A DNA stretch of 64,000 nucleotides from Zoogloea sp. (GTDB taxonomy: Bacteria > Pseudomonadota > Gammaproteobacteria > Burkholderiales > Rhodocyclaceae): contig NZ_JAYROR010000089.1 of NCBI RefSeq assembly GCF_041911615.1, forward strand, positions 2,131 to 66,130. Reading direction: 5' to 3'. The position numbers and the translations under genes were made by a program. The notes under the pieces are model-generated. The model was given only the letters and a program-made list of their open reading frames with translations. It did not search any database and was not told the origin of the DNA. Shown piece by piece: positions 16,142-20,633 of the stretch. Position 1 is the first letter of the stretch. Each line of letters opens with the position of its first letter.

Positions 16142-16169
16142 AAAAAAGCGGCTCAGGCCGCTTTTTTTT
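16142..16169. terminator. Bidirectional intrinsic terminator
   Basis: A6-GCGGC-TCAG-GCCGC-T8 between convergent grxD and nucleotidyltransferase genes. Confidence 0.85.
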
Positions 16170-17277
16170 CGCCTTTAGGCAGCGTGACCTGCTCGGTGGA
16201 TAGTGGGTGGGTCGGCTGTTCGGGCGGGAAGATCGCCTTGTGGGCCAGGTGATAGGCGAGCAGCAGCGGCGGCATCCGCAGCCAGTGGGCGCGGATGTAG
16301 AGGCTGCGGCGGGCGAGCGGGGTCAAGGCGTCGGCGGTGCTCGGATGTTGCGGGCGCAGCACACGGGCGTAGATGCCGTCGAGGGCGCGCTGGCCGATGC
16401 CGCCGCGCTCCAGGCAGCGGCTGCGGGCGATCACGGCTTCCGGCAACGGTGTGTCGAGCAGGCTGCGGCAGTAGCGCAGTGCGAGACGCAGCGGGCCGGC
16501 GAGTTGCAGCCGCTCGGCGCGGTCGAGGAGCTGCGTCCAGGCGCCGTCGTCCTGGTCCAGGTGACGGAGCAGCAGATCGAGGTCGGTGAGATCGCGCAGC
16601 AGGTTGTCCGGTTCGCCCTCGTGGAACAGGTGGGAGGCGCTGTGCAGGATCAGGTCGGGCAGCGAGAGGGTGCGCACGCCGGGCAGGTCGGGCAGCGGCA
16701 CGCTGGCGTCGATCAGCAGCCGGGCGTCGGGCTTGAGACGGGCGGTAGGCGGCAGGATGGTGTGGTGCACGTCGAGCGCCGAGCCGCGGAAGACGTGGCG
16801 CATTGCGGGCAGTTCGTGCATCCAGCGGCGATAGTAGCGCTGGTCGTAGGCGTCGGTGGCGGTGCTCGCCCAGCCCTTGAGCTGCAGCGCCGATTCGGCG
16901 TCGGCGAGGCGATCCTTGGGTAGCAGGATGTCGATGTCGGAGAACAGCCTTCCTCGGGCCGCGGGTAGCCCGGCGGCCACGTAGGCGGCACCCTTGAGCA
17001 GGATCACCGGGATGCCGGCGGGTGCGAGTGCTTCACGCAGGAAGCGTGCTTCGCGGCGGATCGCGTGGCGTTGTTCGCCGGCCATCACCGCGCCCGAGAG
17101 CAGGTGGTTGCGCGGCCGCTCGGGAATCTCGGCTTCGAGGCCGGCGGCCTGCAGGCGCAGGAACAGGCGCCCGAGCAGATTGGCGTGACGGGCCTGGCGT
17201 ACCAGCAGGTCCCAGTCGGCGGCGCCGAGCTGGCGGATCGAGTCGGGCTGGCGGTAGGCGCCAAGCAGCAGGTTCAT
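16153..17277 (-). CDS. Uncharacterised nucleotidyltransferase family protein (NTP_transf_5-like)
   Basis: Start MNLLLGAY overlaps the kinase stop (ATGA); ILLKGAAY...RLFSDIDILL DxD motif; LDVHHTI; DLILHSASHLF...LRDLTDLDLL. Confidence 0.82.
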   Translation of the reverse strand: MNLLLGAYRQPDSIRQLGAADWDLLVRQARHANLLGRLFLRLQAAGLEAEIPERPRNHLLSGAVMAGEQRHAIRREARFLREALAPAGIPVILLKGAAYVAAGLPAARGRLFSDIDILLPKDRLADAESALQLKGWASTATDAYDQRYYRRWMHELPAMRHVFRGSALDVHHTILPPTARLKPDARLLIDASVPLPDLPGVRTLSLPDLILHSASHLFHEGEPDNLLRDLTDLDLLLRHLDQDDGAWTQLLDRAERLQLAGPLRLALRYCRSLLDTPLPEAVIARSRCLERGGIGQRALDGIYARVLRPQHPSTADALTPLARRSLYIRAHWLRMPPLLLAYHLAHKAIFPPEQPTHPLSTEQVTLPKGEKKAA

Positions 17278-18191
17278 GCGCCGGCCTCCGTGGCGAGACG
17301 GTCGAACACGGCGATGGCGTCGTCGAGCCGGCTGTATTCGAAGCTGTAATTGTCGCAGCGGTCGGTGGTGGCGCCGACCGCCGCGAAGCCGCGCGGACCG
17401 AGCACGTGGTAGTTCATCGCGTTGTCGGCGAGCTGCATGAAGGCGGCGCCGCTGCCCATCGGGGTCAGGACGGCTTCGCTGCCGGCACGGTAGCGGGGTA
17501 GCACCATCCAGCGCGGCTGCGCCCATTCGCCGACGGCGTCGACGCTGGCCCGGGTGGGGGCCATCAGCGCCACGGTGCCCTTCGTGGTGTCCTTGACCGG
17601 GCGGGTCAGGAAGGCATCAGGGGCGTAGGCGCGGATGATGTCGATGCTGGCGTTCTTGAGGTTGACCGGCCGGGCGAGGCCCATGATCTCGCCGGTGTCG
17701 AGGCGGATCAGGGTGAGTTCGTCCGACAGCAGGCGCCAGCCGCGGTTGACCAGCGCAGCGCACAGCGTGCTCTTGCCCGAACCGGGGGGCGCCGGCAGGA
17801 TCGCGGCGTGCCTGCCGCGGGCGACGCTGGCGGCGTGGACCACCAGGATGTGATGGCTGTAGGCGGTGACGCACCAGTTGAGACCCCATTCCAGCATCGC
17901 CAGGGCCTGGTTGCGGGGCAGCGGCGTGAAGGGCTCGACCGCGTCCACGACGAAGCGGGCCTGAGGCGCCAGCCAGCGGCGCAGCCCGTGGCCGGGCCGG
18001 ACGGCGACATGGAAATCGGTGAAATCGGCAGCGTCCACAAGGCGGTGGTGCGCGTAGAGCTGAGCCAGTTCGTCGGCGATTTCGGGGATGCCACTTTGCA
18101 GGCGGCAGTTGAACGGGCCAGCCGCCAGCCGCAGGCCGTCCCCTGTCAGCCGGGCGCGAAATTCGGCCGGGGAGAGGTCACGGATTTTCAA
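17274..18191 (-). CDS. HprK-related kinase (HprK-related kinase A type)
   Basis: VVHAASV, P-loop PAPPGSGKSTL, GWRLLSDE; lacks the DRTGG N-domain of true HprK. Confidence 0.85.
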   Translation of the reverse strand: MKIRDLSPAEFRARLTGDGLRLAAGPFNCRLQSGIPEIADELAQLYAHHRLVDAADFTDFHVAVRPGHGLRRWLAPQARFVVDAVEPFTPLPRNQALAMLEWGLNWCVTAYSHHILVVHAASVARGRHAAILPAPPGSGKSTLCAALVNRGWRLLSDELTLIRLDTGEIMGLARPVNLKNASIDIIRAYAPDAFLTRPVKDTTKGTVALMAPTRASVDAVGEWAQPRWMVLPRYRAGSEAVLTPMGSGAAFMQLADNAMNYHVLGPRGFAAVGATTDRCDNYSFEYSRLDDAIAVFDRLATEAGA

Positions 18192-18510
18192 GGGCGGGGC
18201 TCGATTCGACGCGGATCAGGTGGGCCTTGACGAGGGCGTCGAGGGCAATCGCGACGAGGCGCTGGCAGTCTTCGGGGGCTGCGTCGGGTTCTTCGTGCAG
18301 GATGGCGCGGACGAGATGCTGCCCGGTCAGGCGGCGGCCGGGAACGGTCAGCTGGTCGAGCACGAAGCGGGTGAGCGGGGCGAGCAGCAGGGTCTCGCCG
18401 GCGGATGGATCGTAGCGGACCCATCCTTCATCGACTTCTTTCCAGAGTACTTCGGCCAGCCCTTCGAACAGGGTTTCAGAGGCGATGTACGACGTGCCGG
18501 CCGTGAGCAA
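18178..18510 (-). CDS. PqqD/RRE-like peptide chaperone (HPr-rel-A system type)
   Basis: About 110 aa; WVRYDPSAGETLLLAPLTRFVLDQL and terminal LDALVKAHLI fit the PqqD beta-hairpin/helix pattern; directly upstream of the kinase. Confidence 0.72.
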   Translation of the reverse strand: MLTAGTSYIASETLFEGLAEVLWKEVDEGWVRYDPSAGETLLLAPLTRFVLDQLTVPGRRLTGQHLVRAILHEEPDAAPEDCQRLVAIALDALVKAHLIRVESSPALENP

Positions 18511-18528
18511 GACGCGAAGCGGGGCGAA

Positions 18529-19101
18529 TCAGGGGTTGGCCAGCACGTAATCCAGGTATTGCTCGACCTGGGACGCGGTCCAGGCGATGCTCGGCACGCT
18601 GGGGTTCGGCACGAAGTGATTGCTGACGATGCCTTCGTTCCACATGCGGATCGCGGTGGCTTCGGTGAACAGCGAAGGGCTGGCCTTGGCGCTGAGCCAG
18701 GCAGCGATGATCTTCTTCTGGAGCGGCGAGCCGCTGACGGTGAGAACCTTGCGGATGCTGTCGGTGACGGTGGAGGAGAACACGTCGCCGAAGTTCTTGT
18801 TGTCCAGATCGTCGATGACGTTGGGCGGATTCGGGTTGGCGGCGGCGTAGTCCTGCCAGAACTTGACGCCGTTCATCTTCGGCGAGCAGGGCGTGGTGCC
18901 GTTCTGGCTCAGGTTGCCGGAGGCCGAGAAGCCGGAGGGTTGCTTGCACTCGGCCGCCAGCGCGGGAACGCTGGTGAGCGCCAGCAGCACGGGGGCGCCG
19001 GCGAGGCCGGTCTGGATGAGCTTGCGACGGGTTGCCTGGGGTGCGGAGCTGCTGCTGACGTGTTGCGGCTCGGCGGTTTTTTCGGAGTGTTCCAGCTTCA
19101 T
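18529..19101 (-). CDS. Hypothetical exported protein with twin-arginine-like signal and Ser/Gly/Cys-rich mature N-terminus
   Basis: TRRKLIQTGLAGAPVLLALTSVPALA|AECKQPSGFSASGNLSQNGTTPC; high-GC3 codon usage; RBS-like GAGG upstream. Confidence 0.75.
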   Translation of the reverse strand: MKLEHSEKTAEPQHVSSSSAPQATRRKLIQTGLAGAPVLLALTSVPALAAECKQPSGFSASGNLSQNGTTPCSPKMNGVKFWQDYAAANPNPPNVIDDLDNKNFGDVFSSTVTDSIRKVLTVSGSPLQKKIIAAWLSAKASPSLFTEATAIRMWNEGIVSNHFVPNPSVPSIAWTASQVEQYLDYVLANP

Positions 19102-19211
19102 CCTAAACCTCGTTGAACTGACGCTCCGGGGGAGCGCGGTTGAGTGCAGTATAGGCGGGCCCGTTTTGCGGCGGTGTGACGTGGGTCCGCTTTTTGGTCA
19201 AAATAGGCAAA

Positions 19212-19226
19212 GCAAATTTTGTTCCG
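19212..19226 (-). promoter_or_regulatory. Putative sigma54 (-24/-12) promoter
   Basis: Minus strand CGGAAC-AAAAT-TTGC gives exact GG-N10-GC spacing in an AT-rich intergenic region. Confidence 0.5.
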
Positions 19227-19309
19227 GATTTTTGGGCTCGTTTTAGGATTCTGATTCTAAAGGAAATAAAGTCCAACGGAGAAAACCGCCGGCAAAATCG
19301 GCAAGCATG

Positions 19310-19340
19310 TGTAAAAAATGCCGACAAAATTGGTGTCGGC
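19310..19340. promoter_or_regulatory. Putative enhancer-binding-protein sites
   Basis: TGT-N11-ACA (19310-19326) overlapping a perfect inverted repeat GCCGACA-N7-TGTCGGC (19320-19340), about 85 bp upstream of the -24 element. Confidence 0.4.
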
Positions 19341-19352
19341 GCAGGGCGGAGG

Positions 19353-20633
19353 TCAGACGCTGGCGATGCGGCTGTTGGCGAGCGACAGCCGGCTGGCGAG
19401 GACTTCGAGAAAGCCCTTGTAGAAGTGCATCTGGCACAGGCTCGACGCGCGCAGCAGCGCGGGTGCGCGGATGGTGAGGATGCGTGTCTCGGTGACGGTT
19501 TCGACCGACGCGGTGCGCGCCCCGCGCCCGGCGGCGAACAGCGCCATCTCGCCGAAGCAGTCCCCCGGGCTGAGGGTGTTGAGCAGGTGGCCCTTCTTGA
19601 CGATGCGCAGCTCTCCGGCGATCACGTAGCAGAAGTAGTTGCCGGGTTCGCCTTCCTTCATGACCACCGTTCCGGGCGGAATCAGGCGCCATTCGCCGAA
19701 GCGGACGATCTCCCAGATCTCGATGTCCGAAAATTCACGGAAGAAATGAAAGGCGCGCAGGCGCTCGAATTTCTCGCTGTCGGGCAGTTCGCCGGGGGTG
19801 GCGGCGAGGCTGCGGTTGCGGTAGGCCTGGGCGAGGTCGTGGGAGAACTCGAGCCAGGTGGCGTAGCGGGCGGCCGGGTCGCGCTGCATGGCGCGGCGCA
19901 CGATGGCGTCGAGTTCCGGTGGAATCTCGGGGCGAATGCTGGCCGGCGGCGGCGGGGTTTCGTGGGCGATCTGGTACAGCAGGTTGACGTTGCTGCTGCC
20001 TTCGAAGGGCAGGCGGCCGGTGAGCAGCTGGTACATCACCACGCCGAGGGAGTAGATGTCGGTGCGGTGGTCGAGCGGCTGTTCTCGCACCTGCTCGGGC
20101 GCCATGTAGGCCGGCGAGCCGAGGCCGGCGAGCTGGGTGGTTTCGGTGGCGGTGAAGATGGCTGCGCCGAAATCGGAGAGCTTGATGTCCTGGCCGTCGG
20201 GCGAGACGAGCAGGATGTTGGCCGGCTTGATGTCCCGGTGGGTGACGCCCTGCAGGTAGGCGTAGTCGAGCGCCCGGGTGCACTTGAAGATGATCTCGAC
20301 CAGGCGCTCGAACGGCAGCAGGTGGCCGGGCCGGGCGAAGGCTTCGAGGGTGCCGCCGGGGACGTATTCCATCACCACGTAGGCGTCGCGCTCGTCGATC
20401 ACCGCGTCGTGGATCTGGACGATGTGCGGGTGCTGCAGCTTGCCTGCGAGGGCGGCCTCGTTGAGCAGCATGTGGTGGTACAGCGTGGTGTGGTCGGTGA
20501 CGCGCAGCATCTCGGGATGCAGTCGTTTGATGGCCACCTCGCGCTGGGCGAAAGGATCGAAGCCGAGGTAGACGACACTGGTGCCGCCTTCGCCCAGCGG
20601 CCGCCTGATCTCGTACTTGCCGATCCTTTCCAT
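19353..20633 (-). CDS. Hanks-type Ser/Thr kinase with C-terminal cNMP-binding domain
   Basis: Start MERIGKY at 20633; GEGGTSVVY, VAIK, HRDIKPAN, SDFG, GSPAYMAPE; C-terminal GDCFGEMALF...RTASV. Confidence 0.92.
   Translation of the reverse strand: MERIGKYEIRRPLGEGGTSVVYLGFDPFAQREVAIKRLHPEMLRVTDHTTLYHHMLLNEAALAGKLQHPHIVQIHDAVIDERDAYVVMEYVPGGTLEAFARPGHLLPFERLVEIIFKCTRALDYAYLQGVTHRDIKPANILLVSPDGQDIKLSDFGAAIFTATETTQLAGLGSPAYMAPEQVREQPLDHRTDIYSLGVVMYQLLTGRLPFEGSSNVNLLYQIAHETPPPPASIRPEIPPELDAIVRRAMQRDPAARYATWLEFSHDLAQAYRNRSLAATPGELPDSEKFERLRAFHFFREFSDIEIWEIVRFGEWRLIPPGTVVMKEGEPGNYFCYVIAGELRIVKKGHLLNTLSPGDCFGEMALFAAGRGARTASVETVTETRILTIRAPALLRASSLCQMHFYKGFLEVLASRLSLANSRIASV

Follow-up and report, generated by a model that had tools for sequence, protein, structure and literature searches.

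The four genes of the cassette

The stretch of DNA considered here, 64,000 nt of a Zoogloea sp. genome (contig NZ_JAYROR010000089.1) and hereafter called the window, carries at positions 16153-19101 of its minus strand a cassette of four genes, named g1 to g4 in order of transcription. The first, g1 (18529-19101, minus strand), starts with ATG and encodes a precursor protein of 190 aa that is the candidate substrate of the other three products. It is followed by g2 (18178-18510, minus strand; TTG start), which encodes a 110-aa protein of the PqqD family, that is, a RiPP recognition element (RRE), where RiPP denotes a peptide that is made ribosomally and modified post-translationally. Next come g3 (17274-18191, minus strand; TTG start), encoding a 305-aa HprK-related kinase A, and g4 (16153-17277, minus strand), encoding an NTP_transf_5 nucleotidyltransferase-like enzyme of the Pol-beta fold that is 374 aa long when read from its ATG. 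The longest open reading frame (ORF) for g4 extends to 17526; the start is placed at the ATG that overlaps the g3 stop codon, since translation from there puts the beginning of the Pfam domain at residue 19.

An earlier reading made from the letters of the window (the sequence-only reading) described four co-oriented genes with short gaps or overlaps, closed by a bidirectional terminator. The ORFs of the window and the junctions, read directly in the letters, confirm this arrangement on the minus strand, with a gap of 18 nt between g1 and g2, an overlap of 14 nt between g2 and g3, and an ATGA overlap between g3 and g4. The terminator, a bidirectional one at 16142-16169, is a GCGGC-TCAG-GCCGC hairpin with an A6 run on one side and a T8 run on the other; its folding energy is -21.6 kcal/mol (z = -3.5), and none of 200 shuffles folds as well. 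The g4 stop codon lies inside the terminator loop, and the same hairpin ends the convergent gene grxD. A simple consensus terminator scan did not report the hairpin at 16142-16169, probably as such a scan counts the A/T runs into the stem.

Enzymes of the cassette

The product of g3 matches TIGR04352 (HprK-related kinase A) at 375.6 bits, well over the cut-off of 200, and covers 280 of the 280 profile positions. Its P-loop, G137-x-G139-K140-S141-T142, is kept in at least 97% of 81 sequences, as are S156-D157-E158, K179-N180 and T202-x-K204-G205. The g4 product is assigned to PF14907 (NTP_transf_5; 188.1 bits, cut-off 31.2), and the motifs K95-G96, D114-x-D116 and D169-x-H171-H172 are present in at least 97% of 80 sequences. 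The product of g2 gives weak matches to PqqD-type profiles, namely 19.7 bits to TIGR04353 (cut-off 35) and 21 bits to ScmD. Among the proteins found at the g2 position in related loci, 70 of 71 match TIGR04353 at E ≤ 0.01, the best at 7e-22, and judged by these relatives the g2 of the window is a divergent member of the family.

The AlphaFold2 model of g2, built from 71 input sequences, has a predicted local distance difference test (pLDDT) value of 79.7 and shows the three-strand, three-helix layout of an RRE. Its top Foldseek matches in the PDB are the lasso B1 proteins 6jx3_B and 5v1v_A, solved with leader peptides, followed by PqqD (5sxy) and other RRE domains (probability 1.0, target-normalised TM-score 0.67-0.70, E 1.5e-3). 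The g2 protein thus models with the RRE fold that the sequence-only reading had assigned to it, and profile searches find the family identities named there, TIGR04352 and TIGR04353, to be correct.

Together these three genes contain all the parts of the HPr-rel-A system, in which TIGR04352 occurs with TIGR04353 (the "HPr-rel-A system PqqD family peptide chaperone") and usually with PF14907. The catalogue of this system names no substrate, whereas here a fourth gene is present, g1, which lies outside the Pfam and NCBIfam families. The locus is a complete member of a catalogued, unexplained system plus its so far unnamed fourth gene. A search of the literature found no publication on the HPr-rel-A family or its substrate, the related work being on lasso peptides only.

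In the biosynthesis of lasso peptides, HPr-kinase homologues (PadeK for paeninodin, PsmK for pseudomycoidin) phosphorylate a serine of the linear, unfolded precursor. PsmN, an uncharacterised nucleotidyltransferase, is needed for the placement of one or two hexoses on the phosphate, and its D134A/D136A double mutant is inactive. The cassette resembles this tailoring machinery in combining an RRE (B1) with an HPr-kinase homologue and a nucleotidyltransferase that carries a DxD motif, the likeness of g4 to PsmN being one of class and DxD. Unlike lasso clusters, the cassette is without an ABC exporter, and its candidate substrate is a protein of 190 aa with an export-type leader; unlike in lasso precursors, the candidate serines of g1 are internal, right after the leader, and not C-terminal.

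A reading of the locus as a lasso cluster was rejected. The genome, which is 90% complete, gives no match to the lasso leader peptidase B2 (PF13471), no cyclase or exporter is conserved beside the cassette in 80 related loci (described below), and g1 has no C-terminal serine. This agrees with the sequence-only reading, which had seen neither a lasso cyclase nor a leader protease; no cyclase, protease or exporter is conserved beside the cassette. A further point of comparison is the SynChlorMet cassette. The weak ScmD match of g2 stands against a cut-off of 100 bits, g3 matches ScmC at 22.5 bits (cut-off 125 bits), and precomputed Pfam annotation labels the kinase of relatives as PF27840 ScmC. 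Unlike SynChlorMet, the cassette contains no radical-SAM/SPASM genes.

Co-occurrence of g1 with the trio

In a sample of 401 genomes from across the phylum, 62 encode a protein that matches the kinase profile TIGR04352 above cut-off. In this phylum-wide sample, 27 of the 30 returned loci carry an ORF of 160-275 aa adjoining the PqqD and kinase genes, and the encoded proteins share an Arg-Arg(-Arg) motif, a stretch of hydrophobic residues and a cleavage motif with small residues. A further 80 loci were fetched through the kinase alone, and g1 was then sought in them with an iterative profile seeded with the g1 of the window. A g1 homologue is present in 79/80 of these loci, in the order g1-g2-g3-g4 and on one strand, and a PF14907 gene (g4) is likewise found in 79/80. 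Since the same order and strand recur in 79 of 80 loci that were found via the kinase, the arrangement is not a matter of chance. No fifth conserved gene, whether for an exporter, a protease or a glycosyltransferase, lies beside the cassette in the 80 loci.

The reverse search gives the same picture. A profile of 70 g1 sequences matches 26 of 201 genomes of the order, all 26 of which have the kinase above cut-off, and every full-length match in these 201 genomes lies no more than 2 kb from the kinase on the same strand. Only two matches are unlinked to the kinase; both are partial, cover the C-terminal domain and fall within ORFs of 1597 and 2888 aa. These partial helical-domain matches are located at G497:C22:153544-153852 and G472:C65:762-1169. 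The sequence-only reading had asked whether homologues of the first gene always accompany the trio and had counted their independent occurrence as a refutation; the tie to the trio is upheld in both search directions, with no independent full-length homologue seen.

Variations on the arrangement also occur. In one genus (G497:C3 and G539:C9) the order is g3-g4-g1, with g1 placed behind the nucleotidyltransferase gene, some 1.3 kb downstream of the kinase, instead of ahead of the PqqD gene. In loci L075 and L096, the best matches to g1, g2, g3 and g4 are separated by about 3 kb, suggesting that the cassette is duplicated in tandem. Finally, a second type of first gene, designated class A, is found with this trio in other classes of the phylum (L009, L013, L014, L016-L028, L034, L036, L037). 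The class A gene lies behind a GT1 glycosyltransferase gene, and its product has an RRRRLLKGL leader, four Cys residues and a C-terminal SCW[ST]SF.

These observations bear on the idea that the nucleotidyltransferase and the kinase form a toxin-antitoxin or defence module of the AbiEii type, with the neighbouring genes unrelated. The idea draws on a weak match of g4 to AbiEii (E = 0.014, 15.7 bits), but this match is below the cut-off, and the RRE and the export-signal protein are always present. Moreover, the cassette is chromosomal, syntenic across genera and placed beside housekeeping genes. It is present in single copy, g1 and the kinase each being encoded once in the 90%-complete genome, and its regulatory elements include a PEP-CTERM box, described below. 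A toxin-antitoxin function is therefore scarcely credible.

Anatomy of g1

No Pfam or NCBIfam family was found for the g1 of the window or for four distant relatives, and the Pfam search was negative for all 70 members of the g1 alignment as well. The aligned sequences are 19-67% identical to the window protein, and a profile search of 1.84 billion proteins returns 6108 representatives of the family at E ≤ 1e-3. Four parts can be told apart in the protein: residues 1-23 form a variable N-tail and residues 24-50 a twin-arginine, signal-like leader, and these are followed by a serine loop bracketed by Cys52 and Cys72 and by a helical domain (75-190). The leader, encoded at 18952-19032 on the minus strand, comprises T-R-R-K-L-I-Q, a moderately hydrophobic stretch and A-L-A. 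The Cys-bracketed loop that follows (18886-18948, minus strand) reads C52-KQ-P-S56-GFSA-S61-GNL-S65-QNGTTP-C72 and is the proposed site of modification.

Conservation is concentrated in the leader and the loop. The only residues that are invariant in all 70 sequences are R25, R26, C52, S56 and S61, while C72 is kept in 62/70 and S65 in 50/70, and the loop pattern of the family is C52-x-x-P-S56-G-F-x-x-S61-G-N-L-S65-x6-C72. The mean frequency of the top residue falls from 0.56 in the leader (24-50) and 0.50 in the loop (51-73) to 0.36 in the helical domain (74-190). Within the leader, G32, T41, L42 and S44 are 81-89% conserved. A signal for the twin-arginine translocation (Tat) pathway does not require these four residues, and their conservation fits a second reader of the leader.

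Several features of the leader point to export. Runs of 2-4 Arg residues occupy the twin-arginine (RR) position in 70/70 sequences and are followed by L or F in 43/70, then by L, A or T, and then by K or R in 30/70. The distance from RR to Cys52 is 22-37 residues with a median Kyte-Doolittle hydropathy of 0.94, and A, G or S stands three residues before Cys52 in 50/70 sequences. Read as a motif, the g1 leader looks like a Tat-type signal. Cleavage after A-L-A is predicted, which would place the Cys at about +3 of the mature protein. None of the 70 g1 proteins matches the Pfam TAT_signal profile even at E ≤ 10, a negative to be read in light of the fact that this model is very short and that HMMER filters drop weak matches. 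TatC is encoded in the genome (236 bits, cut-off 132.7), and Tat is most likely the route by which g1 would be exported.

The AlphaFold model of g1 divides the protein at the same boundary. Residues 1-72 are of low confidence, with pLDDT below 50 for residues 56-64 and 66-68, and the loop holding S56 and S61 has no fixed structure in the model. The helical domain (75-190) is predicted with pLDDT above 90. Compared with the PDB by Foldseek, the g1 model gives no match below E = 5, and the helical domain thus yields no functional clue. The C-terminus of g1 (...QVEQYLDYVLANP, ending in ...YVLANP) is without the combination of PEP motif, transmembrane helix and basic tail, and C-termini are not conserved across the family.

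The top match of the g1 profile is an 808-aa protein (P0043) in which the helical domain is repeated six times in tandem; every copy is bracketed by Cys, and there is no leader. The sequence-only reading did not single out this part of the protein; the helical part of g1 forms a module of its own that is found without the leader as well, and this separable module is probably extracytoplasmic. What is specific to the g1 proteins linked to the cassette is the leader together with the serine loop. The signature of the helical domain is GC-x-PGFW ... VAALLNA ... CP, which corresponds to no Pfam family or PDB fold match.

This division of the protein could also be read as that of a true small-peptide RiPP, in which the RR segment is a leader only, the Cys52-Cys72 loop is the core, the helical domain acts as carrier or follower and is removed, and export does not involve Tat. 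Consistent with this, the leader and the loop are the conserved parts, the helical domain is separable and found elsewhere, and the TAT_signal profile is not matched. However, the segment is laid out as a signal peptide, with RR, 22-37 residues of moderate hydropathy and a small residue at -3, and family members keep the helical domain, which is modelled with pLDDT above 90. In addition, the cassette has no conserved gene for a protease or an exporter, either within it or alongside. We regard a small-peptide product as distinctly unlikely.

Promoter and regulation

Two elements precede g1 on the minus strand. A sigma-54 promoter element of the -24/-12 type, GGAACAAAATTTGCT, lies at 19211-19225, 109 nt upstream of the g1 ATG and 84 nt downstream of an upstream activator site, TGTCGGCATTTTTTACA (19310-19326). 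The latter fits the 17-nt motif 1, or PEP-CTERM box, a predicted site of the regulator PrsR. The upstream Ser/Thr-kinase gene ends in a terminator hairpin (19320-19340) that overlaps the box, the 3' arm of the hairpin being also the first half of the box. A 17-nt motif 1 ending in TTTACA has been described upstream of proteobacterial PEP-CTERM genes, where it is followed by a spacer of 32-92 nt and then a sigma-54 motif, and the arrangement has been assigned to PrsR of PrsK/PrsR (Haft et al., 2006; PMC1569441). The cassette resembles this PEP-CTERM box regulon in having the same composite of box, spacer and sigma-54 motif and in the presence of PrsR in the genome. It differs from the genes of that regulon in that the controlled gene, g1, does not encode a PEP-CTERM protein.

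Both elements recur across the family. When up to 400 nt upstream of the RR codon are scanned for GG-N8-TTGCW, the motif is found on the sense strand of 55 of 77 loci, against 6 loci on the antisense strand and an expectation of 2.65 from shuffles, and the family consensus of the sigma-54 element is TGGnAnGnnnnTTGCTT. In 44 of 56 loci the pattern TGT-N11-ACA precedes the -24 GG by 79-139 nt, compared with 1-10 loci for other spacings and 0 for the reversed control. The extended consensus of the activator site is TGTCGR-N5-YTTACA.

A scan of the whole genome finds only seven composites of box and sigma-54 element, one of which is that of g1, and four of the other six precede ORFs with PEP-CTERM-type tails. 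The six are located at C45:11336, C95:13524, C115:33855, C120:38851, C41:1065 (minus strand) and C142:21211 (minus strand); at C41 the reading frame is uncertain, and the contig end may cut the ORF at C142. PrsR itself is encoded in the genome (760.7 bits, cut-off 502.6), and it is present in 13/13 kinase-carrying genomes of the same class, compared with 36/401 genomes overall. In 42 kinase-positive genomes of other classes no PrsR was found at E ≤ 1e-140, with just four candidates per genome scored. The operon thus appears to be transcribed from a sigma-54 promoter that is activated through the PEP-CTERM box, with PrsR as the predicted regulator. This wiring, like the separable helical module, goes beyond what the sequence-only reading had proposed.

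The way in which the operon is packed and controlled is relevant to two other explanations. In the first, g1 is a partner that is exported and co-regulated, for instance a protein of the periplasm or matrix, and the trio modifies something else, be it another protein, a small unannotated peptide, or an intermediate linked to exopolysaccharide (EPS) or lipid. The class A cassettes, which lie inside glycosyltransferase/EPS loci, are in keeping with this, and PF14907 enzymes are without a defined chemistry, and PsmN may only supply the substrate for a glycosyltransferase of the host. An RRE implies a peptide ligand, however, and g1 is the only peptide-like gene that always stands beside the trio. 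There is also no space for another ORF, with 18 nt between g1 and g2 and an upstream region of 250 nt taken up by promoter and enhancer. Finally, the strongest constraint on g1 falls on the leader and the disordered serine loop and not on the folded domain. We consider it fairly improbable that the trio acts on a target other than g1.

In the second explanation, phosphorylation by g3 is regulatory, a reversible switch comparable to that of HprK/P on HPr that gates the export or activity of g1, with g4 an accessory or antagonist. HprK/P is a bifunctional kinase/phosphorylase, and the trio is under tight sigma-54 control, both of which suit such a switch. The characterised, RRE-partnered relatives of this kinase branch, however, make a stable biosynthetic phosphorylation that is then elaborated, and the gene with the nucleotidyltransferase fold is kept as consistently as the kinase (79/80 loci). 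A reversible switch is accordingly given very little weight here.

Proposed mechanism

Taken together, these observations are best explained by g1 being the substrate of the trio, modified in the cytoplasm, exported and regulated through the PEP-CTERM box. We hold this account as a whole to be somewhat more probable than its negation. The RRE of g2 would hold the twin-arginine leader of g1 in the cytoplasm while g3 places phosphate on S56, S61 or both, within the flexible Cys52-Cys72 loop. Following the precedent of PsmK and PsmN, g4 would then add a phosphodiester of the hexose or nucleotide type to the phosphate. The modified and folded g1 protein would be exported, most likely via Tat, and cut after A-L-A, after which a C52-C72 disulfide would close the loop. 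Because the operon is under sigma-54/PEP-CTERM box control, with PrsR predicted as the activator, the g1 product would be made alongside PEP-CTERM proteins as part of an exopolysaccharide and floc programme. The sequence-only reading had proposed much the same logic, with the RRE recruiting the first protein for Ser/Thr phosphorylation and nucleotidylation or phospho-glycosylation ahead of Tat export. Its genomic predictions have been supported. The analysis shows which genes are present, how strictly all four occur together, the RRE fold of the g2 model, the intact catalytic motifs, the pattern of conservation in g1 and the recurrence of the promoter and enhancer elements, while the contact between RRE and g1, the modified residue, the chemistry, the use of Tat and the identity of the regulator are carried forward as proposals.

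Tat proofreading chaperones such as TorD, DmsD and NapD bind twin-arginine signal peptides until maturation is complete. The role proposed for g2 is similar to that of TorD, DmsD and NapD, in that a small cytoplasmic protein would hold a twin-arginine leader until maturation in the cytoplasm is done. Unlike in TorD and NapD, the fold of g2 is that of an RRE/PqqD protein, and maturation would consist of a covalent serine modification and not of cofactor insertion. The proposed system combines RRE-guided tailoring by a kinase and a nucleotidyltransferase, as known from lasso peptides, with a substrate that carries an export signal and with the wiring of the PEP-CTERM regulon.

A more far-reaching version of this account can be put forward. 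Here the Tat signal of a full-length protein itself serves as a RiPP-style leader read by the RRE protein, a glycan or nucleotide linked through serine phosphate is built before Tat export on the invariant loop next to the cleavage site, and the process is switched by PrsK/PrsR together with the PEP-CTERM proteins, the product being a component of the floc or EPS matrix not recognised before and possibly a primer or anchor. We offer this version tentatively and think it more likely wrong than right in at least some of its parts.

Several points weigh against the account given above. The lasso kinases that serve as precedent act on a C-terminal serine, which g1 does not have. The g2 of the window scores under the TIGR04353 cut-off. 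With no match to the TAT_signal profile, the Tat assignment is a matter of motif reading, and the helical domain also exists without the leader in large repeat proteins. The 80 loci are those of the closest kinase relatives, mostly Betaproteobacteria, and are not phylogenetically independent. Class A, found in EPS loci, has neither the PSG...SGN serines nor a PEP-CTERM box (0/19), and therefore neither the exact site nor the regulation is universal.

The trio is widespread in the phylum and had a database name but neither a substrate nor a function. A conserved candidate substrate with two invariant serines, together with a predicted regulator, makes it directly testable. If the proposed mechanism is correct, the RRE-guided logic of RiPPs would reach an exported protein of about 140 residues, and a single signal peptide would have two readers. 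The PEP-CTERM/exopolysaccharide programme behind floc formation in activated sludge would likewise gain a new post-translational step.

Genomic neighbourhood

In the window, the cassette is preceded by argH and a gene for a Ser/Thr kinase with a cyclic nucleoside monophosphate (cNMP)-binding domain, and it is followed on the opposite strand by grxD, prmC, prfA and hemA. The Ser/Thr kinase, a 426-aa protein kinase fused to the cNMP-binding domain, is encoded immediately upstream of g1 (19353-20633, minus strand). It was considered as a member of the unit and rejected, being syntenic in the Zoogloea lineage only and having its own terminator. A 74-aa ORF at 19103-19327, which overlies the promoter and the enhancer, is treated as spurious.

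In the 80 loci, the commonest neighbour of the cassette is prmC (19/80), and the hemA-prfA-prmC block is found in 12-19/80, in several betaproteobacterial genera. This adjacency probably reflects a conserved chromosomal position and not a function. The local gene order of the window is kept in four independent metagenome or metagenome-assembled genome contigs, where the identity of g1 goes down to 33%. Among named organisms, the closest relatives belong to the genus Zoogloea: the named g1 homologues come from Zoogloea sp., and the kinase of the window is 89% identical to that of Zoogloea oryzae NBRC 102407.

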